Part shown: piece after piece, positions 34,495 through 56,869 of the stretch
Layout of the letters: each line of letters opens with the position of its first letter
Position numbering within the stretch: position 1 is the first letter of the stretch
Assembly (NCBI GenBank): GCA_016188605.1
Contig: JACPHP010000015.1
Span: 18,833 to 82,832 of the forward strand
From: Candidatus Spechtbacteria bacterium
Lineage (GTDB): Bacteria; Patescibacteriota; Minisyncoccia; Spechtbacterales; JACPHP01
Direction of reading: 5' to 3'
Length of the DNA stretch: 64,000 nucleotides
The notes under the pieces: generated by a model
Told to the model about the DNA's origin: nothing
Seen by the model: the letters and a program-made list of their open reading frames with translations, nothing else
The model's database searches: none
Program-made: the position numbers and the translations under genes

Positions 34495-34600
34495 TATAAT
34501 CAACGAATAACGAATCCTACACGAATATACGAATACTGCTTAGCCGATTCGTTTATTCGTAACAAATTCGTTATTCGTTGATGATCTGCTTGATGATATT
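34495..34600. repeat. Word-palindrome (cgaataacgaat words), near-identical to 5215-5310
   Basis: caacgaataacgaatcctacacgaatatacgaatact ... cgtttattcgtaacaaattcgttattcgttg, vs 5215: caacgaataacgaatccgacacgaatatacgaatact... Confidence 0.6.
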
Positions 34601-35772: not shown

Positions 35773-35854
35773 GAATGGTGAATCATGAATTGTGAATCAT
35801 GAATGGTGGGCCTAGTATTCATTATTCACTATTCATGATTCGCTATTCTAATTG

Positions 35855-36673: not shown

Positions 36674-36848
36674 AATTATTGAAGTTCAAAATTATTGAAG
36701 TTAAACTTCAACTAGCTAGTTGAAGTAGTTGAAGTTTAACTTCAATAATTCTTCCTTGCGCATTGTAATTGTATTTTACATTTACTATAGGAATTTGGAT
36801 AGATTGACCGTGTTAGAAATTAATGACAAATTTCTAAAATTAAAAATA

Positions 36849-36923: not shown

Positions 36924-36979
36924 TTTTAGTCTCCCGATCGGGAGACCTTGATCACCTCCTTTCTCTAGGCAGAGACGGA

Positions 36980-37810
36980 CTACCACGTCCCTGCCAAATC
37001 CCTATCCTCCCACGTCGCCGCCTCAACCCCAGAGGCGTCGGTGGCGACGTGATAGTAGTGGGACTTTGGCCCACCGTACAGCCGCCCGCTGTACGTGGTG
37101 CGGAACACCGCGCCGGCGGACATGAGCACGGCGAACTGTTCGCCGCTACCCATATTGCCGGCATCGCCCTGGGCGATCCGGCCGCGGGCCAATATCTGGC
37201 CCGGGAACGGCAGGAACGTGGGATTCGCCGGGGTGCTGGGCAACACTCCGGCGTCGGGGTGGGCATACGTCGAGGGCCCACCCCATATAGCCCCCTTAGT
37301 GGAGGTCACCAAAGTGACATCCACACCGCAGGCCGCGCAGTCCGCGGCCTCGTCCTCCGTGTAATACCCGTCGGCATCCTTGTGCCGCCGGGTGCCGTAG
37401 TTATTGGCAACCTGCCCTCGGCTAGGGCAGGAAACCTCACCGCGATCGCCTGTGTGGCTATTGCCGCCCCGGTACCCAATCGGGGTCGGCAGAACCACGA
37501 TGACCGCGTCCTCGCTCAGCGAGGCGCGGTCATCGACCGCGATCAGCTTCGGCGCGCCATTGCGCGTCGTGCCGATCCTCGCGGCCATGAGCCGCGAGGC
37601 CAGCACAGTCCCGCGATCGGCGGAGTGCGCCACGCGCGTGCCACCATCCGCCCGAGCGGAGGTGACAAACGCTTCCCCACACCGCGGGCACGTGCCCAAC
37701 GGCGTGGGGATTGCGGTGATACTGCCCCGGTCTGGGCAGGGCCGCATCGGGACGTTCTCCACGGCCAGAAGGCCGAGAGTGCGCCCCCGACCCGCTTCGC
37801 CAACGGCCAC
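36980..37810 (-). CDS. Foreign-looking high-G+C ORF (hypothetical; CPRCG zinc-ribbon-like motif), possibly frameshifted
   Basis: 276-aa ORF in a ~1-kb block of ~65-70% G+C. A second overlapping frame (37968-37543) reads like an N-terminus (MYRIFTAAGGKVVAGG...), suggesting a frameshift or pseudogene. The opposite-strand ORF is Arg-rich antisense noise. Confidence 0.35.
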   Translation of the reverse strand: MAVGEAGRGRTLGLLAVENVPMRPCPDRGSITAIPTPLGTCPRCGEAFVTSARADGGTRVAHSADRGTVLASRLMAARIGTTRNGAPKLIAVDDRASLSEDAVIVVLPTPIGYRGGNSHTGDRGEVSCPSRGQVANNYGTRRHKDADGYYTEDEAADCAACGVDVTLVTSTKGAIWGGPSTYAHPDAGVLPSTPANPTFLPFPGQILARGRIAQGDAGNMGSGEQFAVLMSAGAVFRTTYSGRLYGGPKSHYYHVATDASGVEAATWEDRDLAGTW

Positions 37811-38348
37811 GACTGGGGGATAGTCGTGCCATTGGCAAGCCGGTGCGCCGTGATGGCGCCGCCGGCCACGACCTTACCGCCCGCGGCGGTAAAAATACGA
37901 TACATGACTTGCCCCTTTCCTGCGAAGCCCAGCGCTTCTGCCGGCTCCGCCTCCCCCTCGCGTCCCATGACGCTAGTGAAATTTAAATTTAAAAATATAT
38001 GAATCTAAAAGCCCGACACACCAAGTGTCGGGCTTTGTCTGCATTATCCCGCAAGACAGGGGCTAGGCGTTTATTCAACCCACCGATGACTAAGCCCGTC
38101 TGTGGAAAAATACAGTTCTTTACAATCTCGTGAAGCCCACGAGCTATTGTAGCTACTCTGGTAATAGCCAATTTATGCCACAGTCCAGAATGAACCGTTG
38201 TCGAGGGGAAATCTATGATCATCCTAGTGGCCATAGAGTTTAACCACTACCACCCTATGGGCATAGTGAGAGAACCCGACTGTTCGTTCTAGATCACACC
38301 AACTGTCTGCCTGCGCTGTATGGGTGAGGCCTTAATCCGACTGAAAAA

Positions 38349-38844: not shown

Positions 38845-39720
38845 TTTTCCCCCTATTTCTAGGAGCGCAGACTATATCTTCATCCTCTCTAATTTTAATT
38901 AGAGTAGGAGTTGGCGTATTACCCATATGTCAGCGTATTCTTCCTTGTCAGCCTCTGCATGAATTACAAATAAATGTAATTCAACGCTTAGGCTGAGTGG
39001 AATACTTGCAGAACATATAAGTCGTTATGTTCGATTAATCTCAAACATAATCAGTCGTTACGGGGTTAAATCTAGAATTTTATACAATTCGCTTTTTGTT
39101 TTCTTCCTCTTAGTAACGTAATTTTCTCTTTGGATTACTAAGATAAAGTCAACAAGTTCTGCTAATTGCTTTTTTGTTAGCTGATTAAATTTTGTAGAGG
39201 CTAGAATTTCGCATGCTTTAAGTAATGCGGAAGCTTGAAGTTCCTTGAAACGAATATAAGGCAATAAATTTTTAAGAATATCTCTTATTTGCTTATAACC
39301 ATTTATCCGAAGCTCGGTCATCCCATCATTTCTTTTGGAAATATAACCGATTCTTAGAATTTCTTGTATCCAATACAAAGTTTTTTCATGTCTGGTGTCT
39401 TGATAAAAACAAATGACTGGCATAAATCGAATTCCGATTGCGCCATCCTTACGCTTTTTTATTTGAAGCATAAGACTTCCGTCTCCATCAAGGAAACCAG
39501 ATATGTACGCTAACTCAATTTTAGATCGACTTCCCACGGTATTATCTTATCACATTCTGGTCCTCAAGCAAATTCCGACATATCTAAGGACCGTGTGATA
39601 TGTTTTCTCATTCGAACCAAAATAATAATTAAGATTTCACCGTTATTAGCCAAATTGTCATCGCAAATTACTTCGCGAAGTAGCAGGGCCTTAAAGGCCT
39701 ACTAGGAGAGACCCCCCTCA
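38845..39720 (-). mobile_element. Group I intron (I1) in the 23S sarcin-ricin-loop region, carrying a LAGLIDADG ORF
   Basis: Exon breaks after ...CTCCTAGTA and resumes ...TGACGAGAGGACC. Conserved group I S-element GATGAAGATATAGTC at 38880-38866. Boundaries approximate. Confidence 0.6.
39058..39537 (-). CDS. LAGLIDADG homing endonuclease (single-motif)
   Basis: YISGFLDGDGSL motif. 159 aa, inside intron I1. Confidence 0.8.
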   Translation of the reverse strand: MGSRSKIELAYISGFLDGDGSLMLQIKKRKDGAIGIRFMPVICFYQDTRHEKTLYWIQEILRIGYISKRNDGMTELRINGYKQIRDILKNLLPYIRFKELQASALLKACEILASTKFNQLTKKQLAELVDFILVIQRENYVTKRKKTKSELYKILDLTP

Positions 39721-39861
39721 AAACTCGACGCCTGCAACAGATAGAGACCAACCTGTCTCACGACGGTTTGAACCCAGCTCGCGTACCGCTTTAATTGGCG
39801 AACAGCCAAACCCTTGGGAGCTTCTCCACCCCCAGGATGCGACGAGCCGACATCGCTGTCG

Positions 39862-40285
39862 AATTTTTTTGTGATCCATACTTTCATATGGCTTAGACTA
39901 TATCTTCATCTCGTCTCGGATACCAGTGTTAAATAACACATCATATCTCAATTTTTTTGACGAGAGTCGGCGTGTTGCCTTGCACTAAATGGCAAAGCCT
40001 CCCCTTTCGGGTCAGTCGTTACGGGGTTACAACCGGTGCCAATGCACCGGAAATCCCAAATCCCAATTTTCAATTTCCAATCAAATCCCAATTACTTAAA
40101 TCCCAAAACGTTTTGGTCATTAAATCATTTAGTCATTGATTGGTCATTGGAGTTTGGTCATTGGTCATTCCAGCACTTTGTGCTGGTCGAACTTCCCACG
40201 GTGTTGCCGGGCGACATGTCTCTATCATGTCACTGACGGGTTCTCCGTTATAAGCCGAATTTGTTGGTAGAGCATTGCTGCTCTA
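39862..40285 (-). mobile_element. ORF-less group I intron (I2) at the ~L2500 site of 23S
   Basis: Exon GTTTGGCACCT | intron | CGATGTCGGCTC. S-element GATGAAGATATAGTC at 39907-39893. Interior contains tcccaaa/ggtcattg simple repeats. Confidence 0.55.
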
Positions 40286-40419
40286 GCACCCCGATGTTTC
40301 AAGGTGCCAAACCGGGCCGTCGATATGGACTCGCGGGCCCGATTAGCCTGTTATCCCCAGGGTAACTTTTGTCTGATGATCTTCTCCTTTTCTATGAAAA
40401 AGAGTCGGTTCACTAAGTT

Positions 40420-40545
40420 CTGCTTTCGCAACTTGCCAATGCTCCGCATTGGCACACTGATATACACAGATACGAACACGGATATACACCGATTTTATCT
40501 GTGTTAATCCGTTTTCTTATCCACGTTAATCCGTGTGTCAGTGCG
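40420..40545 (-). repeat. IVS-like insertion, family A copy 1 (in 23S, near E. coli ~2375)
   Basis: ccaatgctccgcattggcacactgatatacacagatacgaacacggatatacaccgattttatctgtgttaatccgttttcttatccacgttaatccgtgtgtcagtgcgaagcactgacatc. Identical to 44207-44332. Confidence 0.7.
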
Positions 40546-40693
40546 AAGCACTGACATCTTATACTCCCGCTTGATTTTACTCTCGAGGTTTCTAAGAGCG
40601 CGGCTTACTTGCCTTGCAGTAAAGCCAGTTTGTGCCTTTACGCGACCACTCCGATTTCCATCCGGAGTTAACTGACCTTAATAAACGCCTCCG

Positions 40694-41344
40694 CTACAAT
40701 TTAGGCAATGTGTTCCCTAGCATTCCTAGCTTATACCGCATTGATGGCAAAATATATGGATCTATCAATTCTACAAATTTTTCAACCGTAGAACTGTTTA
40801 TATACAATTGCCAAAGGTTTCTCTGCGGCCGCAAATGTGTTTGAACACCAAATTTATTTTCCAATATCTTAATTAGTATAAGATTTTCTGCTTTGGAAAA
40901 ACTTTGCGTATTCAATATCAGCGCGCGATGATGCTTTGATTTTATTGAGCCATCATCCATAAACCAAACTGCTAATACTAATGGCGTGAGCCAACGTTCG
41001 ATCTGTCTCGGTAAAACTTTATGCTTATCTTTATAAAATTGTTGGGCATAAAATCTAAACGCTCCATGACTGATCGTTGAAAACCAATGTTCACGATATA
41101 TCCTATCAAATACAACATGTTGTTTTTCTTGAGGCGGGGTTAATACCCATTCTTTGAATTTTTCATATAACCAAAGAGTGTATTTTTCCTGCCAATATGC
41201 ATGTTCAATCTTCAAACGATAGGTACGTTCGTGATTTTGGGTTTCAAGATGTCCATCACCAAGTAGTACACCAATGAGAATCTCTTTCTGCCCCTCCGAT
41301 AACCGAAGCGTTTGTTTATACGCCTCAATCTTCTTTGATCTCAT
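40694..41344 (-). CDS. LAGLIDADG homing endonuclease (two-motif)
   Basis: LIGVLLGDGHL and LAVWFMDDGS motifs. 216 aa. Confidence 0.8.
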   Translation of the reverse strand: MRSKKIEAYKQTLRLSEGQKEILIGVLLGDGHLETQNHERTYRLKIEHAYWQEKYTLWLYEKFKEWVLTPPQEKQHVVFDRIYREHWFSTISHGAFRFYAQQFYKDKHKVLPRQIERWLTPLVLAVWFMDDGSIKSKHHRALILNTQSFSKAENLILIKILENKFGVQTHLRPQRNLWQLYINSSTVEKFVELIDPYILPSMRYKLGMLGNTLPKL

Positions 41345-41626
41345 AAATGTAGGTGATCCTTACGGATCCTTATGGTCGCCCATAAGTTCAGACTATATCA
41401 CCCTCATTACTCCATAAAGTAATGAGTTTCAGCGTGTAGTCGTTGAGGGGAATGCAATCTTCAAAAATTATGCATTCTTCCCTGCTGATAAGCCGCATTA
41501 CGTGATTTTCACCCTTTCGACTAGGTACACGTACATACTGCATCCATTTAAGGAACGGTTTTCCCAGCATATAGCTGATTTTGCAATGCAATCTTACGAC
41601 TGCATGGCCCCTGTGGCTGTAGCAAG
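40706..41626 (-). mobile_element. Group I intron (I3) near 23S ~L2240, carrying a double-motif LAGLIDADG ORF in its 3' part
   Basis: Exon ...GGGGCGCTAGCCTCAAGAGT | intron | AGCGGAGG.... S-element GTGATATAGTCTGAAC at 41410-41396. The ORF stop TAG overlaps the 3' junction. Confidence 0.55.
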
Positions 41627-41949
41627 CCACTCTTGAGGCTAGCGCCCCACTAAAACTGCCTACCATCCACTGTTCCCTGTGTTTCGCGCAAGGTTAGTTT
41701 TTACATTTTAAAAGATGGGTGTTGCATTGACGGCTCCATCTCGCCCGAAAGCGAAACTTCAAAGCCTACCCACTACGCTACGCAGTCAAAATATAAAAAC
41801 AATGGAAAGCTGCAGTAAAGCTCCTGGGGTCTTTTCGTCTTGTTGCAGGACAACGGCATCTTTACCGTTACTGCATTTTCACCTAGCTCTTCGTTGAGAC
41901 AGTTGCCCAGTCATTACACCTTTCGTGCGGGACAGAAGTTACCTGCCAC

Positions 41950-42994
41950 AATTATGTTACTACCCCAAATACAAATTGAGGACGGAAAGAGCGCTTCGGC
42001 TCCTTCTCTCTATGTCGCCATAGAGTTCAGACTATATCACATTCTCTGGACGAAATCGTACAGAGAGCTTTGGCATGTAGTCGTTGAGGGTTCGTTGCAA
42101 TTTATCTAATTTTTTTCTTTGCGTTATATGTCGTAAAGGATACTGATGAAGAAATATATTTGCAAAAGCTATAATCGTACTTTTTGCATTTGTTTCCCAA
42201 TGACGCAATCCATCCTTTCGCTTTCTCGTATTCCCAAAACCCGTAAAAGCTTTGAGAAGAGAGATAATCTTTTCATCTTTCATTGCGACTGCTATATAAG
42301 GCTCAAGACGATCGTTGCTTCTTTTCCAGCCGAATGATCCTTCGCCATCAATCACTCCAGCTAAAAAATATCCTACCGCATCACGAGAACTTTCCAATAA
42401 AGAAAAACTCTTTTTAATGCGTCCTTCTTCCTTTACTCTCCTTAACGCTTTTCTATATACGCCCATCACTATTGTCTTGCGGCGATGCTCTGCATGACCT
42501 TTATGTTGGTCAAGATATGAAACCGCAGCGCGCATAATTCTAATTCGTTCATTTCCCAAATCGCCACAAATTAGTGGGTACGTGGCAAGAAATGATAAAA
42601 TTATCTTTACTTTTCTTTTACCTCGAAAAGAAAGATTTAGAGCTCCTTTTACTTTAGAAATAACTCCATCATCCTCTCCAACAATTCTATTTATATCTTC
42701 AAGTAATACTCTATCAGAATTAGTTACGGTAATATCTGGCATATAGTAATGCCCAACAGGATGCTTGTTCCGAAACTTAATTACAGAACAAGACATTTCT
42801 GCAGCAAAAAATCCAGAATAATAGTGATGCGAAACTTGCAACGTTTCCTGCTGATTGTCTGACGGCCAAAAATTGACCACACCCGCAGCATTTTTACTCA
42901 TTATATATATTATACACTGAGTAGCTTAGGTTCTCCAGATGTTCCAGCATATAGCCAAATTTTCCAATAAGAGTCACCTCTTATGGTCCCCTGA
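41950..42994 (-). mobile_element. Group I intron (I4) at 23S ~L1931 (after GCGAAATTCC), carrying a LAGLIDADG ORF
   Basis: Exon ...GGTCCTAAGGTAGCGAAATTCC | intron | TTGTGGCAGGTAACTTCTGTCCCGCACGAA. S-element GTGATATAGTCTGAAC at 42044-42031. Confidence 0.6.
42032..42901 (-). CDS. LAGLIDADG homing endonuclease (289 aa, degenerate first motif)
   Basis: YFLAGVIDGEGSF motif, and an upstream YYSGFFAAEMSCS degenerate copy. Confidence 0.75.
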   Translation of the reverse strand: MSKNAAGVVNFWPSDNQQETLQVSHHYYSGFFAAEMSCSVIKFRNKHPVGHYYMPDITVTNSDRVLLEDINRIVGEDDGVISKVKGALNLSFRGKRKVKIILSFLATYPLICGDLGNERIRIMRAAVSYLDQHKGHAEHRRKTIVMGVYRKALRRVKEEGRIKKSFSLLESSRDAVGYFLAGVIDGEGSFGWKRSNDRLEPYIAVAMKDEKIISLLKAFTGFGNTRKRKDGLRHWETNAKSTIIAFANIFLHQYPLRHITQRKKLDKLQRTLNDYMPKLSVRFRPENVI

Positions 42995-43037
42995 CAGAGG
43001 AATTTCGCTACCTTAGGACCGTTCTTTAGTGTTAACT

Positions 43038-43397
43038 CATAGTCGCCTATGAGATCGGACTATATCATACCCATTGCAAGCTCTTCGGCATTCATTGAGC
43101 TTACGGGTTCTTGCGTATAGTCTCTGAGGATTCCCCACCAGAGTGGGGTCTTTCCTGCTGATTGTCCGCGTCACCGAATGGATTATTACTCAAAGAGTAC
43201 CATCGGATTCATGCGGAGTTTCCAGTCCCGCAAGCCTTCCACCATTCATAATTTACGAACGACGTGACTTACGGTTTCCCGATATTGTTTTTGATCGCCA
43301 CAGCAATACTGCGGGATCTAGATTTGTAGCTACTAGCTATTATCACAGACAAATCGGGAACATATAGCAAGATTTTTTAGCGTAACTACAACGGTCA
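43038..43397 (-). mobile_element. Compact ORF-less group I intron (I5) at 23S ~L1900-1917
   Basis: Exon ...GGCCGTAACTATAA | intron | (C)GGTCCTAAGG. S-element GATATAGTCCGATC at 43063-43045. Confidence 0.5.
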
Positions 43398-43439
43398 ATT
43401 TATAGTTACGGCCGACATTCACCGGCGCTTACAGCACGA

Positions 43440-43545
43440 GCCATCCTTCGCTCCTCACTTCGTGCGGAGCTACGGAGTGGCAAGCTGCTTTTACTGAAAG
43501 CATGCATCGCTCCGAAGCTCTTTGCGGAGCAAAGAGCGAAGGACG
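43440..43545 (-). repeat. Structured insertion, family B copy 1 (23S helix ~1850-1880 expansion)
   Basis: ccttcgctc...cttcg...ggagctacggagtggcaagc...gctctttgcggagcaaagagcgaaggacg with a perfect internal hairpin gctctttgc-gga-gcaaagagc. Related copies at 45405-45530 and 59285-59400. Confidence 0.6.
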
Positions 43546-44206
43546 ACAAGCGCTGTTTGACGTTCCGGCATTGGTCAGGTGTCACCCCCTATACATCCTC
43601 TTACGAGTTAGCAGGGAGCTGTGTTTTTGTTAAACAGTTGCCAGGCAAAATTTAACTGCGCCCATCTTGCGATGGGAAGGCATATTCCGAAGTTACGCCT
43701 AGCTTTTTTGCCGAGTTCCTTAACGAAGACTCGCTAGTTCACCTTGGGCTACTCGCCCTGCCTACCTGTTTCGGTTTGTGGTACGGGCCCAACTCATCTG
43801 ATCGTAGAGAATTTTCTTGGAAGACTGCTCTCTTAAATCGGTCTTGACGTGTCAAAACCTGTTTCCTACTTCATCGGTTTATACCATGCGGATTTACCTA
43901 CATGGCGACCTCAAAATAGAAACGTAAATCCAATAATACGCTTAAGATACAAATCTCCGTCATCCCATAGAAATGAGTTGAGGGGCTGGAATATTAACCA
44001 GCTGTCCATCCCCCAGAGCCTTTCGGCTGAGAGGTTAGGGCCGCCTAACCCTTGGATGATTGCCATTGCCAAGGAAACCTTAGGCTTTCGGTGGGCCGAT
44101 CTCGCATCGGCCATGCGGTTACTCATGCCAACATTCTCACTTCTCTACGCTCCACCGCCCCTCACGAGACGACTTCACAGCATAGAGAATGCTCTCCTAC
44201 CACGCC

Positions 44207-44332
44207 AATGCTCCGCATTGGCACACTGATATACACAGATACGAACACGGATATACACCGATTTTATCTGTGTTAATCCGTTTTCTTATCCACGTTAATC
44301 CGTGTGTCAGTGCGAAGCACTGACATCCACGT
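44207..44332 (-). repeat. IVS-like insertion, family A copy 2, at the classical 23S helix-45 (~1170) IVS site
   Basis: Identical to 40420-40545. Flanking exon TACCGAAGACGTG | A | GCGTGGTAGGAGAGCATTCTC aligns with E. coli 23S ~1160-1180. Confidence 0.7.
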
Positions 44333-44964
44333 CTTCGGTAATATATTTGAGCCCCGGTACATTTTCGGCGCAAGAACTCTCGACTAGTAAGCTGTTACGC
44401 ACTTTTTAAAGGATGGCTGCTTCTAAGCCAACCTCCTAGCTGTCTGAGAATTCTCACCTCCTTTTCCACTTAATATATATTTAGGGACCTTAGACTGTGA
44501 TCTGGACTGTTTTCCTCACGAGCGCGGAGCTTAGCCCCCGCGTTCTAACTCCCTTCTTATCAATTCAGGAATTTGGAGTTTGATTGATTCGCCTAGGCGA
44601 AAGCCACGACAAATCATCCAGTGCTCTACCTCCTAAATGAAACAGAAGAGGCCAGCCCTAGAGCTGTTTCGGAGAGAACCAGCTATTACCAGGCTCGATT
44701 AGTTTTTCGCTACTCCCCACAGTTCATCACATAGTTTTGCAAGGCTAACGTGTACGGGCCTCCCTCCAGTTTTATCCGGAGTTCACCCTGACCATGGGTA
44801 GCTCGCCTGGCTTCGGGTCTTATGTGTGCCGCCAAGTACGCCCTATTAAGACTTGGTTTCCCTACGCCTTCGTTCCCATCGGAACTTAGACAAGCGACAC
44901 AGATAAACTCGTTGGCTCATTCTTCAATAGGCACAGCGTCACTCCTCGCTACCGCTCGGAGCTC

Positions 44965-45095
44965 CGAAATCAAATCTCAAAAATCAAATCTCAAAATTGT
45001 GGTATCGCCTTGCGGCGATTATATAGTCTCGCAAAGCGAGACACCTTAGTTTTGAGATTTGAGATTTTAATTTTGAGATTAGAAGCTCGGAGCGA
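44965..45095. repeat. 'atctcaaa' word-palindrome element inserted inside the 23S gene
   Basis: ...gctcggagc|tccgaaatcaaatctcaaaaatcaaatctcaaaattg...ttttgagatttgagattttaattttgagattagaa|gctcggagc.... 9-bp direct repeat gctcggagc at both borders. Confidence 0.55.
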
Positions 45096-45162
45096 TAGCG
45101 ATAAAGCTCCGCTTCTCTGTAGGCATATGGTTTCAGGTACTATTTCACTGCCCTCACCGGGC

Positions 45163-45201
<39 letters not shown>

Positions 45202-45404
45202 ATCATCAAAAGTATTTAGCCTTAGCTAATAGTATAGCTAGATTCGCTCGAGGCTTTCGTTCCTCGAGTTACTCAAGAATAGCAACAGGAGATGTGAATT
45301 TTTCGTCTACGGGACCATTACCCTCTTTGGTCGCCCTTTCCAGGGACATTCGACTAAATTGCACATTTTGTGACTCCTTTGGATTGCTCCAATGCTGCCA
45401 TCTT

Positions 45405-45530
45405 ACAACCCCCATCCTTCGCTCTTTACTTCGTAAAGAGCTTCGGAATGGCAAGCCACTATATAAATTTCTGGCATGCTGTTCCGTAGCTCCTTGCGGA
45501 GCAAAGAGCGAAGGACGGGTTTGGGCTTTT
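45405..45530 (-). repeat. Structured insertion, family B copy 2 (23S 5' domain)
   Basis: ccttcgctctttacttcgtaaagagcttcggaatggcaagcc...ctccttgcggagcaaagagcgaaggacg. Confidence 0.55.
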
Positions 45531-45829
45531 CCCTGTTCGCTCGCCGCTACTGAGGGAATCATAGTTATTTTCTTTTCCTCCGCTTACTGAGATGTTTCAC
45601 TTCAGCGGGTGTGGGTTCCAGCTTGCGCTGGAAGAATGCGGTTTTGCCGCACTGAGTTTCCTCATTCGGAAATCCCCGGATCATAGGTTGCTAGGCACCT
45701 CCCCGAAGCTTATCGCAGCCATGCTACGTCCTTCATCCCCTTTTGATGTCAAGGCATCCACCATACGCCCTTAAAAATGTTTGCATGATGCAGTTAAATG
45801 CTCCTCGCTATGCTCGCTCGTCGCAGACG

Positions 45830-46427: not shown

Positions 46428-47111
46428 CTATCCGTTAATATCTTTTTTAATCCCTTCCAAAATTTCGCGGGCTACTCCCTGGCCACCGAGGCCGAAGGCT
46501 AATCCGCTCGCCAAGGCAAGCATGGCAACAATGCCCATAAACAACGTGTTGACCATGGCTGTTGCAACGCCAAGCTGGTTTAATGCGGCTAGAATACCAA
46601 ATGCCCACACAGCCCAACGCGTCACCAAGCCCACAAAACGAGATGAGCCACCAAGTTCAGTTGCCTGTAATGCTGTGCGTGTAGCTTTCTCTAAGAAATC
46701 ACCGAGAATTGCCGCCACCACAATTACGAGAGCCGCGACTACTATATTAGGAATATAGAGCACTATTTGCTGCAAAAATGTTGCGACAGCAGTTAACCCC
46801 ATAATCTCTACCGCGGCCATAAAGAACGCGATGACGAAAAACCATTTCACCAGCATGCCGAGTAAAGAACTTATTTCAATCGTCATGCCTGCGCGATGAA
46901 GCATTTGCGTTACAGAAAGCTGGCTCATAAATTTATCCAGCTGCGCCATTTGCAAAAGGCGCGTTACAACCATACCAAAAGCGACCGCAATAATCCAACC
47001 TACAATAAATACAATGATTGCCCCGAGAAAACTCGGAACGAATTGCATAAAACCTTGCCAAATTTGCTGCAAGGATACAACTACTACTTCACTCCATTGT
47101 TGTACTAACAT
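46428..47111 (-). CDS. Membrane protein with repeated conserved TM helices (MscS-N-terminal-like 'TM helix' repeats)
   Basis: 227 aa, four-plus TM segments with repeated AxxLG-rich pattern. Family assignment tentative. Confidence 0.4.
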   Translation of the reverse strand: MLVQQWSEVVVVSLQQIWQGFMQFVPSFLGAIIVFIVGWIIAVAFGMVVTRLLQMAQLDKFMSQLSVTQMLHRAGMTIEISSLLGMLVKWFFVIAFFMAAVEIMGLTAVATFLQQIVLYIPNIVVAALVIVVAAILGDFLEKATRTALQATELGGSSRFVGLVTRWAVWAFGILAALNQLGVATAMVNTLFMGIVAMLALASGLAFGLGGQGVAREILEGIKKDING

Positions 47112-47251
47112 AATGTATATTTTAAAGAGAATAAATCTCAGTTAATTTTATTAATTATTTGAATATCGACGTTAGGTAAAAAGTACAAGACCTTTCTAAT
47201 AACATTATAGCAGTAATTCAGCAGAATTTAATATAGCTCTGTGGATAACTA

Positions 47252-47292
47252 TGGCAGAGGAGTTGCCGCGCTAGCGCGGCAACTCCTCTGCC
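47252..47292. terminator. Perfect 17-bp-stem hairpin ggcagaggagttgccgcg-cta-gcgcggcaactcctctgcc
   Basis: Direct reading, between the two minus-strand membrane-protein genes. Confidence 0.55.
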
Positions 47293-47301
47293 ATCAATTA
47301 T

Positions 47302-47808
47302 TTACGATAATCGTTTAACTGATGTATACTCGAGAACTGATTGCACTAACCACGCAAACGTAATCGCAATTACAATGCTACCGATAATATCAACCCCGTG
47401 GTGCACGCCAACGTAAATTCGTGAAAAACCTACTATAATTGTCAACGCCCATAGCGCAATGCTAACTTTTTTATTAAACGGCCAAAGGGCAGCTGCAATC
47501 GCAGCGCTAATCAGTGTGTGATCGGAGGGAAAACCATTATCCGCCACATGCGCAATAAGCGGAGTGAAGCCATCAGTTACGAACGGCCGCGGGTAATAAA
47601 AGAAAAATCCCAAGATTTTTGCCGCGAGATAGGTCAACGGCAAAGCCAGCACAGCAAAAACAATCATCCGCTTTTGCACGTCACGCTTTTGCAACATAAG
47701 ATATGCTAACGCGATACCAATAATGGCAATAAAAAGATACTTAGCAGATAAAATAAAGAATAGAGAAGCTATGTCCATAATATTGAAGTTCACGACCCAT
47801 ATTAGCAC
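47302..47808 (-). CDS. PAP2-family phosphatase (undecaprenyl-diphosphatase-like)
   Basis: YPRPF ... FPSDH ... SRIYVGVHHGVD signature triad of PAP2 acid phosphatases. Confidence 0.7.
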   Translation of the reverse strand: MLIWVVNFNIMDIASLFFILSAKYLFIAIIGIALAYLMLQKRDVQKRMIVFAVLALPLTYLAAKILGFFFYYPRPFVTDGFTPLIAHVADNGFPSDHTLISAAIAAALWPFNKKVSIALWALTIIVGFSRIYVGVHHGVDIIGSIVIAITFAWLVQSVLEYTSVKRLS

Positions 47809-48008
47809 GCGTTGAAGAAAGAAAAAAGGCCACCTACAAATAGAAAAACTCGCCTATGGCGAGTTTTTCTATTTGTCTGGTCAAGTCTAATACTCAAAAA
47901 ATTAACTACGCGAGGGAGTATGAAAAATGGTCGTTAAAATAGACAATATTTCGAATACTGCAAGAATCGGACTCCTCTCGCGATAATAAGCGTTAGCATT
48001 TATAGCTT

Positions 48009-48048
48009 TGGTGGACCATGGGAGAATCGAACTCCCATCTCCCGGATG
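48009..48048 (-). pseudogene. Partial duplicate of tRNA-Ala (3' 40 nt, anticodon loop through CCA) plus 12 nt of 3' flank
   Basis: tggtggaccatgggagaatcgaactcccatctcccggatg identical to 48127-48166. Shared flank atttatagcttt. Confidence 0.7.
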
Positions 48049-48126
48049 TCCCAGAAAAACAAGGAGCTTTGCGACTATGTTTTTCGCGATACCGGCAAAA
48101 TAATGAGCGTTAAGTATTTATAGCTT

Positions 48127-48200
48127 TGGTGGACCATGGGAGAATCGAACTCCCATCTCCCGGATGCAAACCGGGTGCTCTGCCACTAAGCTAATGGCCC
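48127..48200 (-). tRNA. tRNA-Ala (anticodon TGC), CCA encoded
   Basis: GGGCCATTAGCTTAGTGGCAGAGCACCCGGTTTGCATCCGGGAGATGGGAGTTCGATTCTCCCATGGTCCACCA. G3:U70 Ala identity pair present. Confidence 0.85.
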
Positions 48201-48278
48201 AAATTTTGAATATTTTGTTAAATATCCTCACTCCGCTGCGCTGCGCTCGGTGTAATCAAAAGAGGTGCACTGGAAAGT

Positions 48279-48313
48279 TTTCAGCCTGAGGCTGATCCGC
48301 CTCTGGCGGAAAA
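48279..48313. repeat. Twin-hairpin G+C-rich repeat (cagcc-tgag-gctg / ccgcc-tct-ggcgg), copy at the tRNA side of the foreign cassette
   Basis: ttcagcctgaggctgatccgcctctggcggaaaa. Inverted near-identical copy at 56162-56196. Related copies at 8281-8315, 56010-56030 and 56390-56415. Confidence 0.65.
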
Positions 48314-48377
48314 CCGCCTCGCTAAAGCGAGAGGCCAAACCTAAACTTTCCGACGAAAGCCAAGCAGTTGGCTTTCG

Positions 48378-48403
48378 TCCTCTGCCACTAAGCTAATGGC
48401 CCA
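48378..48403 (-). pseudogene. Partial duplicate of tRNA-Ala (5' 23 nt)
   Basis: ctctgccactaagctaatggcccaa identical to 48178-48203. Confidence 0.65.
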
Positions 48404-48519
48404 ATGCGCGCAAATTACAAAGCACAGAACACAAAAGCCAAACAAACCACAAAAGCACAAAATTACAAACACGAAACGTTTGGGATTTGTAATTTGTGTT
48501 TTGGAATTTACAAACCTAG

Positions 48520-48591
48520 TGGGCGCGGAAGGAGTCGAACCTTCCGCCTCTTTCTTATCAGGAAAGCGTTCTACCGCTGAACTACGCGCCC
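48520..48591 (-). tRNA. tRNA-Ile (anticodon GAT)
   Basis: GGGCGCGTAGTTCAGCGGTAGAACGCTTTCCTGATAAGAAAGAGGCGGAAGGTTCGACTCCTTCCGCGCCCA. Anticodon loop CTGATAA. Confidence 0.85.
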
Positions 48592-48711
48592 GCAATAAAG
48601 AATACAGAATCTAGAATACCGAATACAGGGACGGAATAAACTGCGATACTATCTTTTTTACAACAATAACCAATATGGCACAAGTACCACATATTTGTCA
48701 GGGTTCTGATA

Positions 48712-48739
48712 TTGACTTATAGTTTAATCGTTTTATAAT
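48712..48739 (+). promoter_or_regulatory. Near-consensus sigma70 promoter (TTGACT, 16 nt, TATAAT) for the 48822 gene
   Basis: Direct reading, followed by a leader with AAAGGAGGT SD 5 nt before GTG. Confidence 0.6.
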
Positions 48740-48821
48740 CACGACACTCTCTTGAACTGCACAGAAATGCAAACGAGAAGCTGTATTTTCACAAATTATA
48801 ACAATCGAAAGGAGGTATCTG

Positions 48822-50645
48822 GTGCTAACATCATTAGTTCCAGTCGAGTCATTACTCGACCCCGTTCTTGCTGCCGCAGTATGGCCTGAAAGTATTACAA
48901 GCAATGAAGTTTTCAAACAACAGCTTGAACGGCGCAGGGAGCTGATAAAACGCCTCGAAGACGTCATTTGCTCTCTGCCCCGGCCAGATATGCCTATCGG
49001 GACAGCTATTGATCTGGGGTATATCACCGAGGAACAAGTTGCGGCACTCTATGAATCTCTAAGCGATTTGCTGCAAGACCCGTACTACAAGCGCATTGTC
49101 TTCTATCTTCCATTTGAATTCTTGCCCAACAGAACGTGGGACCATTTCGGGGAAAAACTCCGACAGGTCGCTAGACTATTTAGGCAGGTATACATGGATG
49201 CTTGGTGGCATCTGCTTCTAGTGCAAGACGTACGCGCCAATTTCGTAGATGGCGACGTGCTTGAAGTAGGGCAGAGAGTCGGCGACTTGCCGCGAGTAGT
49301 GAAGGCGGCTCATCTCATACCCAAGCTCGTTGAAAACGGCTTGCTAGAGATTGAGGACGTCATATCTCTCATGGAAAAAGCCAACGATCAGGTGCTGAAA
49401 GATAGCATTGCCGATGCGCTCCCCGTTCTAGCAGATATGGGATTTATTCCAGATACAGAAGCTGACACAGAATCAGCTGAAGCAACACCAAAGCCGATTA
49501 CGCTTACATATGTTCGCAAAAAATTGGATAAAGCGTTCTCTAGAATAGATACTGAAGATTTCGGCAGTATCACGAAGGGTCGAAAAAATTGGCTTGTACA
49601 AAAAAAGAGGCAAGAAGCCATCGATGCCGCTGGAGAAGATATATGCACAGCAATCGTTCGAGGAGAGCTCTCTAATGAAATAACGGCGAGCTTTCTCGCT
49701 TACGGAGATTCTGCTATGCAGCGAGTGCTTGTCGAAGGAATTAGAGCGGCCATTGAGTCCGTCGCGCTAACTAACGTTAGCAGGGCGCACGCACTGTACG
49801 CTCAGTATAAAGAAACTTTGCTAGCACTTTGGGAGAGCGACGATCCTGATATCGGGGAAGCGCTATCCAAAACTTTCCGCCGGCTCCATTACCTCGGTAT
49901 TGTTGATGACCAACGGCTGTCGGAGTTAGGAATAGTCATTCCACGTCTCGCAGGACCTTTCTCTAAAAATCTTAGGTCAATGGGAAAGGACTTGCGCGAT
50001 ATAGAAACGATGGCCGCGTCTATCAAATGCAACAGCGAGCTGTCGCGGCTCATATACCCGGGGGTTCTCATGTACGGCTCGCGCATCAAGGGATACGGCG
50101 CGCAAAATTCTGATATTGACCTTGCCGTATTTGTGAGGCCGGGAACGCCTTTTGCTGGCAGGTCGGAGCTACAAAAACTACTTGGACAAACTTTCGCGCA
50201 TAATGCGATTCGCGGCCAAGTTGTTGAATTCTGGCTGGAAGAAAAGGGCGAGATACTTCGAATTCGTGACTTCAATAGTTCTGATGTATATCTGGGAGAA
50301 AGCTATTGGACACATGTCCTGTTTGGCGCCGTATGGATGGGCGGCGATGATACAATACGTGAGTTGTATGAAAAACTGCTGACTCCATATATGCGCGATG
50401 ACGGTAATATAATTTTTGGCCGCGGCGCAATAAGCATCTACTTGGAGGAAACAGAACGAGACACTCTACAGTACAGGTTGATGCATAAAGGATATGAACG
50501 ATTCTTCCCGCCATGCGGCGGCATACACACACCCCATTCAGATAGAATTAATGATAGTAGCATGTTCTGGGATTCGGGATACAGGCAACTTGCAACAATG
50601 CTGTTTGTAAGCAGAGTTTTTCTGCCGAATATCCCAGTTGTATAA
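48822..50645 (+). CDS. Large protein with C-terminal pol-beta-type nucleotidyltransferase domain (GS...DID minimal NTase core)
   Basis: 607 aa. LMYGSRIKGYGAQNSDIDLAVFV fits hG[GS]x9-13Dh[DE]h. ~400-aa helical N-terminal region of unknown type. Strong SD, GTG start. Confidence 0.5.
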   Translation: MLTSLVPVESLLDPVLAAAVWPESITSNEVFKQQLERRRELIKRLEDVICSLPRPDMPIGTAIDLGYITEEQVAALYESLSDLLQDPYYKRIVFYLPFEFLPNRTWDHFGEKLRQVARLFRQVYMDAWWHLLLVQDVRANFVDGDVLEVGQRVGDLPRVVKAAHLIPKLVENGLLEIEDVISLMEKANDQVLKDSIADALPVLADMGFIPDTEADTESAEATPKPITLTYVRKKLDKAFSRIDTEDFGSITKGRKNWLVQKKRQEAIDAAGEDICTAIVRGELSNEITASFLAYGDSAMQRVLVEGIRAAIESVALTNVSRAHALYAQYKETLLALWESDDPDIGEALSKTFRRLHYLGIVDDQRLSELGIVIPRLAGPFSKNLRSMGKDLRDIETMAASIKCNSELSRLIYPGVLMYGSRIKGYGAQNSDIDLAVFVRPGTPFAGRSELQKLLGQTFAHNAIRGQVVEFWLEEKGEILRIRDFNSSDVYLGESYWTHVLFGAVWMGGDDTIRELYEKLLTPYMRDDGNIIFGRGAISIYLEETERDTLQYRLMHKGYERFFPPCGGIHTPHSDRINDSSMFWDSGYRQLATMLFVSRVFLPNIPVV

Positions 50646-50648
50646 AAT

Positions 50649-50677
50649 AAAGCCGTTGGTTTCACCAACGGCTTTTG
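50649..50677 (+). terminator. Hairpin aaagccgttggt-ttca-ccaacggcttt followed by tg/taatt
   Basis: Immediately after the 48822-50645 stop, between convergent genes. Confidence 0.55.
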
Positions 50678-50746
50678 TAATTGAAGAAGACCACCCCGCA
50701 ACTGCAAGGTGGCCTCAATTTTATAGATTAAAGAACAAAAAACGAA

Positions 50747-51892
50747 TTAGTTACCGCTACGGCGGTGTTCAGTGCCAATACCGGTAAGCCGTTTACTTGC
50801 AGACGCGCTGGCGCTGAGCTGGTCCCAGGGAATCTGGGAGCCAAGCATGTACAGCGCGCCAAAGTACTGCAATTCTTCATTGCCGGCTGGCTGATCCTTG
50901 ACCCGCATGACCGCCAACACGAATCGAGTCAGGTTGGTCTCCAGCCGCGGATACGTGGCAGAAACCGCTACACCGAGCTGTCGAATCATCTGGTCACGGT
51001 TAGCGGCACCGATCAACGCTGGCAGACGGGTATTTTCCAGGGTTTCTTTGATCTTGGATGCGTCATAAGCGAGCGCAGCCGCGATCTGAACTCCCGTTCC
51101 CGCAAAAACCTTGTTTACAGAATCGGCCATTGCATCTGCTGCGTCACGCAGCCCGCCTGTATCCGGCGGCTGCATCATGCCCGAAGGCATAGCGCCACCA
51201 CCGCCGACCATCGCCATCATGGCATTCATCATAAGAGCAGGATTTGCTGCGCCCTGCACCCACGCATCCTGCCAGGATTTAAGCTGTCCATAGAAAGTCG
51301 TAATCGCTGGCCAAAGATGCTCATCAATGCGCTGAAAAAGCTGCTTCTTTCGCGCTTCAGTCACATACGAACCATCCAAACCGTCGATCGCCGCAAAGAT
51401 CTCAGCATAGCTGCGTCGCGTCATTTCCTTTCGAAGCTTAAAAAACTCCGGATCAACCTGCTCTTCGTTCGTATCCGCAAATCTCTCCATCAAGCCAGCG
51501 AGCACATCCGGGATACTGAAGAGGCCTGCCCGGTATGCCAGTGCCGCCCGAACTGCCGAAATAACAGTGGATTGATCAACCTTGAGGATTCCACCAGTTC
51601 GAAGCGCTTCCAGCCAAGAAGCATCGGTGGGCACTGCGGGAAGCACAGCATCAAAAGAAATGGCTCCCATTGTACTTACTGCGGGCGGCTCAGCCACTGG
51701 CTTAGCCGGTGCAAGCGCTTTGAGCAAATTCCTTGCCGGCAATACTTTCATGCCGACTCCGACGAGGTCTTGCTCTGTCAAACCAGCCAGATCTTCCACG
51801 GTCGTAGCACCAAGATCAGAAATAATCTTCTCAATCACTTCAGATGCAACGCCCATAGACTCAAGTTTGGCAGTTACTTCAGTGACTTCCAT
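50747..51892 (-). CDS. Hypothetical protein with N-terminal tandem helix-hairpin-helix-like segment
   Basis: GVASEVIEKIISDLGATTVEDLAGLTEQDLVGVGMKVLPARNLLKAL. SD AAAGGGG 8 nt upstream of ATG. Confidence 0.4.
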   Translation of the reverse strand: MEVTEVTAKLESMGVASEVIEKIISDLGATTVEDLAGLTEQDLVGVGMKVLPARNLLKALAPAKPVAEPPAVSTMGAISFDAVLPAVPTDASWLEALRTGGILKVDQSTVISAVRAALAYRAGLFSIPDVLAGLMERFADTNEEQVDPEFFKLRKEMTRRSYAEIFAAIDGLDGSYVTEARKKQLFQRIDEHLWPAITTFYGQLKSWQDAWVQGAANPALMMNAMMAMVGGGGAMPSGMMQPPDTGGLRDAADAMADSVNKVFAGTGVQIAAALAYDASKIKETLENTRLPALIGAANRDQMIRQLGVAVSATYPRLETNLTRFVLAVMRVKDQPAGNEELQYFGALYMLGSQIPWDQLSASASASKRLTGIGTEHRRSGN

Positions 51893-51914
51893 TTTCTTTA
51901 CCCCTTTCGCGGTT

Positions 51915-53300
51915 CTACCTGCACATCTTATCCCGCTCGGTACTTCCCAGCGAGATCATTCTAACTTGCACTCCCAGCTTTTCTCCAATTATACTGGCAC
52001 AAAACGAGTAAAGCTCGCTTGGTGTGGCGGGCGATGGAACTTTCAGGGTCGTAATTTCCGGCTTGCAGCGCGAAAGCTGTTTGCCGAGCGATTCCTGATA
52101 TTCCAACTGATTGTTATCCGTTCCCACACGGACTTTGATTGCGCCCGTGGGCGTAAAATATGTAGGATCGTCCGCGCCGAGATAACGGTCGCATATACGC
52201 CACTCTCCGTTAGCCACAATTTGATCGAACCATGTGACGGCCAGGCCATTGAATGCATTTGGGCCGCCGCAAACTTCTATAGCGTAACGAAGTAAAACGA
52301 GATCCAGCGCCCCTACGCGCACTTCTCCCTGATAGCGGTTGCTTTCTTTGTGACTGCCTGGAAGCAATCTTTCTGCCATCTCGGGATTGGCAGTAGGCAT
52401 CGGACCCGCACCGTGGCGAATTGCGTATGCTCGGAACACTCCGAAATTCACAATCTCTCCGTCGTAGCCAGCATCTATAAGCATCGCTTGCGTAAAGCAC
52501 GGCAATGTTCGAATGGCGCTTACGTGCGGATAGAAACCGTGAAAGTGATCGGTGATAACTCCGTGCGAGCTTTCAACTACAACCACACCGTCCCGAGCAA
52601 GGACTTCTCGCTCAAGATATTCATGGCCGACAATCTTAGCTCGCCGCGATACTTCTTCAAACCGTTCGGCAATATAGTCGAGGAAGCCGTCATCATAAAG
52701 AAGAGCAACTTCCTTTTGCATCGCCTCACGGTCGCTAGGCAAGAACTCGCCGCCAATAGTCTCGTTGAGATCGCTGCGTATTTGCTCTCGCACGCAAACA
52801 AGCAAATCTTTCAGATCGGGCCGCGACAAATCGCAGGCTCGAATCGTAAGATCCGGATACTGTTGCAAATAGCGATACGCTTCACCAACGCCTGTGCCAA
52901 TCGTGCCGCGAGGATTATTACCACGTGACATTTCTTTCAGGCGCGACGCAATTCCGTGATAAGGCGTGGCGCACAATGCCATTTCATCTACCGTCAGCAG
53001 ACCAAACGGATTGTGTATGCCGTGCTGATATCGAAGTGCGTCAGACTCATTAAGTAAACCTTCTGGAGAAACGATAAACCGAGCGGAGATATGCGTGTTA
53101 ATGCCTTCGAATGTGCCGCATCCCCACTGGCTGAAAGCAAAGCTCTCGCCACGCGAAGTGCGGACACCGTGGCTTCCCTGCGCGCCTCCGACTTTCACGA
53201 CGGTGTGGGCACGCATCATTGTTGCGATTTTGTGCACCACACCGCCCTTGCCGCCGTCACCAGGACCGAGGTCGGTGACGGTGTAGACTTTCTTGGTCAT
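51915..53300 (-). CDS. Divergent adenylosuccinate-synthetase (PurA)-like enzyme
   Basis: P-loop GPGDGGKGGVVHK (PurA GDEGKGK); VKVGGAQGSHGV (PurA GGHNAGHT); NPRGTIGTGVGEAY (PurA TTGRGIGPAY); ESSHGVITDHFHGFYPHVSA (PurA [21 protein letters not shown]); HGAGPMPT (PurA RVGAGPFPT). The aspartate-binding TTGRRRRTGW loop is replaced by SNRYQGEVRVG. ATG at 53300 with GAGGAAGGTGG SD. Confidence 0.6.
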   Translation of the reverse strand: MTKKVYTVTDLGPGDGGKGGVVHKIATMMRAHTVVKVGGAQGSHGVRTSRGESFAFSQWGCGTFEGINTHISARFIVSPEGLLNESDALRYQHGIHNPFGLLTVDEMALCATPYHGIASRLKEMSRGNNPRGTIGTGVGEAYRYLQQYPDLTIRACDLSRPDLKDLLVCVREQIRSDLNETIGGEFLPSDREAMQKEVALLYDDGFLDYIAERFEEVSRRAKIVGHEYLEREVLARDGVVVVESSHGVITDHFHGFYPHVSAIRTLPCFTQAMLIDAGYDGEIVNFGVFRAYAIRHGAGPMPTANPEMAERLLPGSHKESNRYQGEVRVGALDLVLLRYAIEVCGGPNAFNGLAVTWFDQIVANGEWRICDRYLGADDPTYFTPTGAIKVRVGTDNNQLEYQESLGKQLSRCKPEITTLKVPSPATPSELYSFCASIIGEKLGVQVRMISLGSTERDKMCR

Positions 53301-53310
53301 CGTCGCCACC

Positions 53311-53350
53311 TTCCTCGGTACGCCGAAGTCTCGCTTGGCGAGACTTCGGC
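53311..53350. promoter_or_regulatory. Perfect 17-bp-stem palindrome ggtacgccgaagtctcgc-ttgg-cgagacttcggcgtacc inside the cassette operon, abutting the PurA-like SD
   Basis: Direct reading. No T-run, so more likely a processing/stability or attenuator element than a terminator. Confidence 0.4.
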
Positions 53351-53379
53351 GTACCTTTCAATCTTGATTTGGTAACTGG

Positions 53380-54537: not shown

Positions 54538-54567
54538 ATTATTCGCCCCTTTCTTTGCTATACACGC

Positions 54568-55380: not shown

Positions 55381-55391
55381 CGAATTTCCCT

Positions 55392-55668
55392 CCTTTCGTA
55401 CTTGTATTGTAAAGGGACACAATAAACTAGTGCTGATAGTATTGTGTATAACCTGTCTTGTCAAGAGCGGCGTAAGTAACCCCTCACACCCCTCGTGAGT
55501 CATTGCGAGCCCCAAGGGGGCGTGGCCCGCCAGCAACGCCTTAAGCGTAGCTTTGGCGGGCTGGCAATCCCGCTCGTATGTGGTAACGAGATTGCTTCAC
55601 GCTACGCTCGCAATGACGTATAATAAGATTTTGATATAGGGGGTGTGGGGGGTTACCATAGCGACGCA
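55392..55668 (-). promoter_or_regulatory. Structured ~280-nt 5' leader of the cassette operon (candidate cis-regulatory RNA)
   Basis: 12-nt perfect inverted repeat GTCATTGCGAGC ... GCTCGCAATGAC enclosing ~100 nt of nested G+C-rich stems (agcgtagc/gctacgct, cccgcc/ggcggg). No match to a riboswitch class I can name. Confidence 0.35.
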
Positions 55669-55678
55669 TTATATGGCA

Positions 55679-55706
55679 TGATTCCTAATGCTCAATATAT
55701 TTTAAA
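55679..55706 (-). promoter_or_regulatory. sigma70-like promoter (TTGAGC, 16 nt, TATAAT) reading into the cassette operon
   Basis: Direct reading on the minus strand. Confidence 0.5.
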
Positions 55707-55796
55707 AGAACTTTATTTAAGATTAGCAAATGGTGATAATAGTGTCAATAGTACACTATTAACAGGTTAAAATTTTATGAATTATTTATGCGGTTT

Positions 55797-56790: not shown

Positions 56791-56869
56791 TTGTCACTGA
56801 TCTTACCGTGGGCCCACTTACGTGAGACTTCGGGTACTACCAGCTTCACTGACGTGACGGGCGGTATCG

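Follow-up and report, generated by a model that had tools for sequence, protein, structure and literature searches.

Helix 25 (H25) of bacterial 23S ribosomal RNA (rRNA) faces the solvent on the large subunit and accommodates inserted sequence; bacterial intervening sequences (IVS) are classically located there, as is expansion segment ES7 in eukaryotes. IVS at helices 25 and 45 of Salmonella, Campylobacter, Coxiella and other bacteria replace the apical loop by a long stem-loop, occur sporadically among relatives, contain no open reading frame (ORF) and measure on the order of 100–200 nt (PMC2801512, PMC4990558). Artificial insertions at the H25 tip are tolerated in E. coli (PMC2441807), and natural H25 IVS accompany fragmentation of the 23S rRNA in Campylobacter (PMC2801512). 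Insertions in rRNA genes are frequent in the candidate phyla radiation (CPR), and the part cited here of a survey of CPR 23S genes describes short, ORF-less insertions that are not introns as common at IVS positions and reads them as IVS (Tsurumaki et al. 2024, PMC11270868). Here we describe an insert at the tip of H25 in one 64-kb stretch (the window, that is, the whole stretch of DNA that was analysed) of a metagenome-assembled genome (MAG) of Candidatus Spechtbacteria (Patescibacteria, CPR). It resembles the known IVS in replacing the apical loop by a long stem-loop, in its sporadic occurrence, in the lack of an ORF and in its size, and shares with the CPR sites 23IS2 and 23IS4, as the cited part of the survey presents them, the phylum-level group and the class of site (PMC11270868). 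The 23S insert is derived, is homologous to an intergenic copy in the same window and continues the helix without disturbing the native base of H25. We consider it probable that a palindromic repeat, dispersed in the genome and transcribed as an RNA hairpin along with neighbouring genes, has here also become an IVS-like insertion in 23S rRNA.

Dispersed repeats form the second class with which the insert has to be compared. REP/REPIN, ERIC, Correia/NEMIS and Rickettsia palindromic elements (RPE) are imperfect palindromes of ~100–150 bp that are multicopy, lie in spacers and are co-transcribed; some of them, the Correia elements, are substrates of RNase III, and others, the RPE, insert into structural-RNA or protein genes. 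Small dispersed repeats (SDR) reportedly insert into the heptamer hairpins of Nostoc, as Elhai and co-workers are said to have found in 2008. REPINs are described in PMC3116915. The hairpin P6b of the Nostoc tRNA-Leu(UAA) intron is built of heptanucleotide repeats, with a Class I motif TDNGATT and a loop AATCTTC (PMC4476775), and direct heptamer repeats such as TAACTGA occur in intergenic regions of Beggiatoaceae, Cyanobacteria and Bacteroidetes (PMC4679880).

According to an Rfam search, the minus strand of the window carries a bacterial rRNA operon, and the 23S copy of the repeat falls inside the match to the large subunit (LSU) model. Alignment to the Rfam covariance model places the extra sequence between LSU model positions 583 and 584, that is, in the terminal loop of H25, and leaves the native H25 base, AGCGGAGCUU / GAGUGACGCU, intact. 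The complete H25 comprises 179 nt (44935–45113, on the minus strand like all H25 features below; delimited by the LSU alignment and the RNA fold) and forms one continuous hairpin in both the minimum free energy and the centroid fold, with −88.3 kcal/mol and z = −8.3. From the base upwards, this hairpin consists of the native base, a GC-rich segment of 12 bp, a C–C mismatch and 7 bp, arms of AU-rich heptamers and a three-way junction, whose core (the Y-core, 45001–45045) is defined by fold and alignment. In the RNA sense, the fold assigns UCGCUAUCGCUC-C-GAGCUUC (45082–45101) to the 5′ strand of the outer GC-rich stem and GGAGCUC-C-GAGCGGUAGCGA (44946–44965) to its 3′ strand; each strand holds one copy of a 9-mer that is discussed below. 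A group I or group II intron, which would have a catalytic core and splice sites within conserved rRNA, was considered and rejected: no intron model matches the insert region, and the apex of the helix is extended with the conserved rRNA sequence uninterrupted.

We gathered 12 related H25 loci by scanning genomic and metagenomic contigs with a 23S pattern specific to the lineage and by way of the gene adjoining the 23S. Nine of them have a short H25 closed by a GCAA, UUCG or GUAA tetraloop; in L027, the equivalent of the insert is GGCGGAGC-CUUCGG-GUGACGCC. The other three carry unrelated inserts, of ~200 nt in L005 (L005 7630–7900) and of ~290 nt in L023 and L025, where they encode a GIY-YIG domain (Pfam E = 1e-15). 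Since H25 is short in nine of 12 relatives, ~163 nt (44943–45105, delimited by this comparison), including the GC-rich extension that bears the 9-mers, are derived in this lineage. The insert thus replaces the terminal loop at the H25 apex, has a stem continuous with the host helix and is sporadic among relatives, as IVS are. Judged from these sequences, the H25 tip is a recurrent insertion site among related Parcubacteria. Contigs of the sister species end before H25. Along the route through the neighbouring mechanosensitive-channel gene, synteny is lost in L009 and L015, and L012 stops at 23S position 455.

The insert has a paralogue in the window. A second Y-core element fills the rpsF–ssb spacer (14380–14510, plus strand, core at 14418–14470), as defined by fold, alignment and an orthologue in the sister species. 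Read in the RNA sense, the minus-strand 23S copy and the plus-strand rpsF–ssb copy can be aligned in register over ~120 nt at 80% mean column identity, with the heptamer words in the same order, the same core and 24 identical nucleotides, TATAATCGCC...GGCGATACCA. By this homology, the nested heptamer-arm element comprises 122 nt (44963–45084) if the 9-mers represent a target duplication. The core shared by both copies consists of GGUG, hairpin P2, (C)UUAUAUA, hairpin P3 (AUCGCC-loop-GGCGAU) and ACC; in the 23S copy it reads GGU, P2 GUCUCGC-UUU-GCGAGAC, linker UAUAUA, P3 AUCGCC-GCAA-GGCGAU and ACC. The sequence of P2 is wholly different between the two copies and forms a hairpin in both, and both copies are in the sense orientation relative to transcription. 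The Y-core defines a sub-type of the family, in which the hairpin apex is replaced by a small three-way junction. As a separate observation, a perfect TATAAT hexamer, read in the RNA sense, lies in its single-stranded linker in each of the three copies, including that of the sister species (14445–14452, 45018–45025 and L017 ~2221–2228); no matching −35 box was seen.

The family to which both elements belong had been proposed in the first-pass annotation of this DNA as a genome-wide set of AT-rich word palindromes, and within the window it is real. The word AATCTCAAA occurs 20 times on both strands versus 1.13 expected, a count reached in 0 of 100 shuffles, and ATCTCAAA occurs 26 times versus 3.3 expected. 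Six elements of ~112–131 bp can be aligned, and each of them folds much better than its own shuffles (z between −5.7 and −9.5). Their inverted repeats are imperfect, as annotated, with arms of 37–58 nt that are 72–84% complementary; they span 14381–14507 and 44970–45076 in the two Y-core elements and the entire length of the other four, which we call simple copies. These were delimited by inverted repeat, fold and alignment, with no strand assigned, and lie in the spacers of tRNA-Leu and RNase J (8725–8836), RNase J and trpS (10847–10972), and recA and a helix-turn-helix protein gene (18959–19070), and next to the start of trmD (63571–63681). A related flavour with AAATGTC words, placed at 27990 in the first-pass annotation, lies in the rpoB–rpoC spacer (27981–28096, no strand assigned) and aligns with the family at its termini. 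Lone ATCTCAAA words at 16468, 23724, 39037, 54101 and 61827 were rejected as elements.

Degenerate heptamers make up the arms of the family, with words of AAATCTC type in the left arm and complementary ones of GAGATTT type in the right, and their 7-nt period gives a lag-7 autocorrelation of 0.45–0.59 in spacers that hold hairpins, as compared to ~0.3 elsewhere. The four simple copies align in register with 77–86% pairwise identity. Terminal inverted repeats, for which the earlier annotation had suggested such an alignment, are seen in it: the termini ATCTCAAA...TTTGAGAT are invariant across the four copies, and the whole element is an imperfect palindrome. Arm complementarity is 0.82 within a copy and 0.85 between copies (left arm of one against right arm of another). 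Since complementarity within copies is not above that between copies, the copies derive from one consensus and are not separately evolved hairpins; as a covariation test within the simple family, this same comparison shows no copy-specific co-evolution. A BLAST search of PLSDB plasmids with a simple element gave no match, for which low-complexity masking is a possible cause.

Two further observations concern the simple copies and their surroundings. Each has an asymmetric centre (C/T)GTAG (8782–8786, 10906–10910, 19016–19020 and 63627–63631) that lies on the plus strand in all four, the flanking genes being on the plus strand for two and on the minus strand for two, and the window as a whole has a negative GC skew. 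The orientation of simple elements may follow replication and not transcription, four copies being too few to decide. Intergenic hairpins with 7-nt periodicity and other words (TTTTCAA, GAATNNT and ACGAATA) occur in the window at 7042–7164, 12071–12162, 34496–34585 and 35773–35848, and heptamer hairpins in relatives use GCTGAAA (L019 2838–2940, between rpsF and ssb) and AGCTTTT (L009 17866–17956). In L028, tRNA-Leu and trpS are followed by ordinary GC-rich hairpins that resemble terminators. Heptamer-periodic hairpins are thus a general trait of the order and are not limited to one repeat family, each lineage and locus having its own words.

How the family member reached H25 depends on the reading of its flanks. 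The first-pass annotation took the insert for a miniature inverted-repeat transposable element (MITE) that transposed into the 23S gene with a 9-bp duplication of GCTCGGAGC, and the other copies for bidirectional terminators or insulators, an explanation that we consider possible and on balance unlikely. The 9-mer is present exactly where annotated, at 44954–44962 and 45085–45093 on either side of the 23S copy, and a direct flanking repeat of at least 9 nt is found in 0.8% of random flank pairs. In relatives it is no part of the native helix pairing, as would have undermined the transposon reading, being absent from H25 of all 12 related loci, nine of them insert-free. A duplication of 9 bp is a common length, and Tn5 gave 9-bp duplications at the H25 tip (PMC2441807). 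The family also has the multiple dispersed copies (6 in 64 kb) and the inverted termini ATCTCAAA...TTTGAGAT of a MITE. In RNA, however, the 9-mer reads GCUC-C-GAGC, a near-palindrome, and the two 9-mers pair mutually (GCUC with GAGC, in both directions) around the C–C mismatch inside the 12 + 7-bp GC-rich stem, so that a palindromic stem segment explains the repeat as well.

Two histories fit the present sequence equally well: (i) insertion into a hairpin tip UCGCUAUCGCU-CCG-AGCGGUAGCGA with a 9-bp duplication, and (ii) insertion into a GAGCU-UCGG-AGCUC loop without duplication, in which case the repeat is a by-product of the palindromic stem. For the first history, what is left of H25 when one 9-mer is taken out together with the element is a plausible hairpin, the predicted empty form being UUUAUCGCUAUC-GCUCCGAGC-GGUAGCGAGGA with the heptamer element absent, and the C–C mismatch of the paired 9-mers is that expected from a duplicated hairpin tip GCUC-C-GAGC; the alternative hairpin of the second history requires no duplication. 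The mismatch and the rarity of such repeats by chance favour duplication, and the absence of repeats at other copies weighs against it. At boundaries mapped from the 23S copy, the homologous rpsF–ssb copy has matches at 3/9 positions in the window and at 5/9 in the sister species, and none of the six copies outside the 23S gene has a consistent flanking repeat, those other than rpsF–ssb showing 4–7-nt AT-rich matches at inconsistent distances. We therefore regard a 9-bp target-site duplication at the 23S copy as doubtful: the exact 9-nt repeat stands, whereas its near-palindromic, self-paired nature and the lack of a repeat at other copies do not bear out the annotated interpretation. The proposed MITE-like mobile origin holds to the extent that the insert is derived and belongs to a dispersed family; the duplication is unproven, and genes for a transposase or other mobilising enzyme were sought in the 64-kb window and none was found. 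A relative (L015) contains a weak Y1_Tnp ORF.

The role as bidirectional terminators or insulators that the same annotation assigned to the other copies finds no support in their positions and sequences. Ten intergenic heptamer hairpins were counted in the window, eight of them between co-directional genes, one between convergent genes and one beside a gene start. The annotated placement exactly at operon boundaries is accordingly correct as to intergenic spacers and not as to operons, several copies lying inside likely ones: the co-directional spacers include rpoB–rpoC and rpsF–ssb, which are normally co-transcribed, and the 23S copy sits upstream of >2 kb of essential rRNA. The family hairpins are long and AU-rich and lack the short GC-rich stem with U-tract, at the ends of transcription units, that marks an intrinsic bidirectional terminator, and a consensus terminator scan of 7000–20000, an interval that contains five copies, flagged 0. 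Read-through positions together with the absence of terminator features make strong bidirectional termination unlikely.

We compared the rpsF–ssb copy with its counterpart in the sister species, represented by Logan contigs L017 and L018, whose SSB protein is 77% identical. An orthologous Y element occupies the same rpsF–ssb spacer, which is 137 nt long in both species and 90.5% identical without indels; the corresponding identities are 72–73% for flanking coding sequence, 58% for third codon positions of rpsF and 61% for the PGM–rpsF spacer. More distant relatives have different hairpins at this site. Between the orthologues, P2 carries two double changes from G–C to A–U, which are compensatory, and is still 100% paired. 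As the spacer is far above synonymous-site identity, the comparison provides strong evidence that the intergenic Y copy is maintained by purifying selection with compensatory changes. The covariation itself, reached or exceeded in 121 of 500 shuffles, is a statistic that carries no weight with so few sequences.

Conservation of this kind raises the explanation that the Y-core is a functional RNA module (e.g., a protein-binding three-way junction) selected both in rpsF–ssb mRNA and at the ribosome surface, with the arms merely presenting it. We judge this improbable, although the core is identical in three copies, P2 varies and yet stays paired, and both copies in the window are sense-oriented. 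The argument is limited to three sequences with the covariation result given above, and constraint on the whole hairpin could explain the conservation of the spacer. A permissive Rfam search with the Y element returned nothing near threshold, the best score being 21 bits as compared to a gathering score of 41, and no further Y-core copies were found in 278 kb of related sequence. The more specific proposal, that the Y-core is a selected structured module which might serve as a protein- or ligand-binding site and is displayed by the heptamer scaffold in the rpsF–ssb–rpsR mRNA and at H25, seems to us somewhat less probable still.

That the 23S insert is a lineage-specific expansion segment, which arose where it stands as heptamers slipped and a hairpin lengthened, was never mobile and is only superficially similar to the intergenic hairpins, is very improbable. 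The hairpins of other words in the window, L019 and L009 point to a general local process that makes hairpins, and the same rRNA has other lineage-specific hairpin expansions; the in-register alignment with the rpsF–ssb element over ~120 nt, with its shared word order and 24-nt identical core, is nevertheless not what separate growth at H25 would reproduce. An assembly artefact, in which a repeat was misjoined into the 23S gene of a MAG, is very unlikely, since the insert lies precisely at the apex of H25, its unique GC-rich flanks are mutually complementary and extend the native helix, and its ~20% divergence from the other Y copy is not that of a collapsed repeat, even though the source is a MAG and all independent Logan contigs of the same strain stop short of H25, the longest (L031) ending inside the rRNA repeat at 45411–45519 and five shorter ones slightly upstream of it.

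We therefore return to the reading of a dispersed palindromic repeat that is co-transcribed as an RNA hairpin. Repeats in spacers, mostly between co-directional genes, would most likely be transcribed within polycistronic RNA and fold there as long AU-rich hairpins. H25 would already have been extended when a family member entered its loop through duplicative insertion, transposition or recombination, and the RNA of this copy may either be kept as an expansion segment or be cut by RNase III in the manner of an IVS, which would result in a fragmented 23S rRNA. The intergenic copies may act at the RNA level as processing sites for an RNase specific for double-stranded RNA, in 3′-end protection or by weak or partial attenuation. 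Co-transcribed RNA hairpins, for which REP, ERIC and Correia elements provide the analogy, are the most economical reading.

Several points weigh against this reading, in addition to the missing mobilising genes and the inconsistent flanks of the other copies. The empty H25 site is known from distant relatives only, in which the neighbouring mechanosensitive-channel protein is ≤59% identical. The contig is a metagenome assembly, with the same-strain contigs ending before H25 as described. Only two Y-core copies are present per 64 kb, and scans of IMG/VR and of JGI metagenome contigs with the Y-core pattern gave no exact match. Finally, retention or excision of the 23S insert, like any role of the family in mRNA, is something that we infer.

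The locus departs from each of the described systems in defined respects. As compared to 23S IVS, the H25 insert copies an intergenic repeat family of the same genome and is nested in a second, GC-rich extension; excision by RNase III and fragmentation of 23S rRNA belong to the known IVS, and the insert described here is known from its sequence and predicted fold. The part of the CPR survey cited above does not link its short insertions to dispersed intergenic repeats (PMC11270868). REP, ERIC, Correia and RPE differ from the present family in that its arms are assembled from degenerate 7-nt words, purifying selection clearly acts on one orthologous copy, and neither a RAYT or other transposase (in the 64-kb window) nor a consistent target duplication accompanies it. 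The repeats of PMC4679880 likewise consist of arrayed 7-nt units, occur only between genes and have a patchy phylogenetic spread; in them a single exact word is repeated directly and in tandem ahead of start codons, in contrast to the degenerate inverted arms found here.

The closest structural analogue is the heptanucleotide stem of the Nostoc tRNA-Leu intron, a resemblance of words for which homology is not demonstrated. Like P6b, the present elements have a stem of complementary 7-nt repeats in a structured RNA, the word AATCTTC of the Nephroma-type loop, which two family copies carry at their own loop, and non-repeat modules nested at the apex. Among 40 in-phase heptamers of the right arms, 14 (35%) match TDNGATT versus 1.3 expected, with a maximum of 6 in 2000 shuffles. 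The two systems differ in phylum and in host RNA (23S H25 and mRNA spacers, not an intron), and the match of the words is partial. TDNGATT-type hairpins in Nostoc and Patescibacteria might share a generating or recognition mechanism.

A second, GC-richer hairpin repeat was observed in the same rRNA operon. It has the form CCUUCGCUC...GAGCU[U/A]CGGA...GAGCGAAGG and is present in two copies in the 23S gene (45411–45519 and 43431–43556), with a third close to the 16S 5′ end (~59330–59400). The copy at 45411–45519 is common to the relative L008 (L008 4975–5078), which makes this first 23S copy an older expansion. The GC-rich outer stem at H25 has words similar to those of the GC-richer repeat, GAGCUUC/GGAGCUC. 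Near-perfect palindromes that share TTGAAG...CTTCAA (2224–2273, 23337–23390 and 36690–36750) may constitute a further small repeat family.

The rRNA operon itself, annotated by Rfam on the minus strand, comprises the 16S gene (57844–59454), tRNA-Ile and tRNA-Ala, an intron-bearing 23S gene that spans 39731–45784, and 5S. Protein-coding genes break up the operon within 46428–57844: the interval from 16S to tRNA-Ile holds ~9 kb of ORFs, including an adenylosuccinate-synthetase-like gene, and a PAP2 gene and the mechanosensitive-channel gene lie between tRNA-Ala and 23S. We observed four LAGLIDADG endonuclease ORFs (39058–39537, 40694–41344, 42032–42901 and 56915–57484), three of them in 23S introns and the fourth immediately 3′ of 16S; the sole Intron_gpI match of the Rfam search in the window is at 39875–40311. 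Elsewhere in the window, rpoC is a single gene encoding 1220 aa. A chloroplast or cyanobacterial origin, which the rRNA introns and the heptamers might suggest, was rejected on this ground and because the proteins of the window match Candidatus Spechtbacteria entries at 100% identity. A type II restriction-modification pair (a TdeIII-family endonuclease and a DNA methylase, 15468–17864) lies between rpsF–ssb(–rpsR) and recA. A 1-kb island at 36960–37970 has 67% G+C as compared to 45% for the window, long ORFs overlapping on both strands, one cyanobacterial-type HIP1 site (GCGATCGC) and no Pfam match, and may be foreign DNA.

Taken together, the feature belongs to classes already described, being at once an H25 IVS or expansion segment and a palindromic repeat of the intergenic kind, with a conserved Y-core. 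Current views are not overturned by it; known classes are extended to a new lineage, and two of them are linked. One ORF-less insertion in a CPR 23S gene is traced to a repeat family in the spacers of the same genome, which offers a concrete source for an rRNA IVS or expansion segment, namely a palindromic repeat captured at a helix tip. Hairpin repeats built from heptamers, earlier known mainly from heterocystous cyanobacteria, are hereby documented in Patescibacteria. With at least one copy under purifying selection with compensatory changes, these elements are not to be dismissed as neutral selfish DNA.

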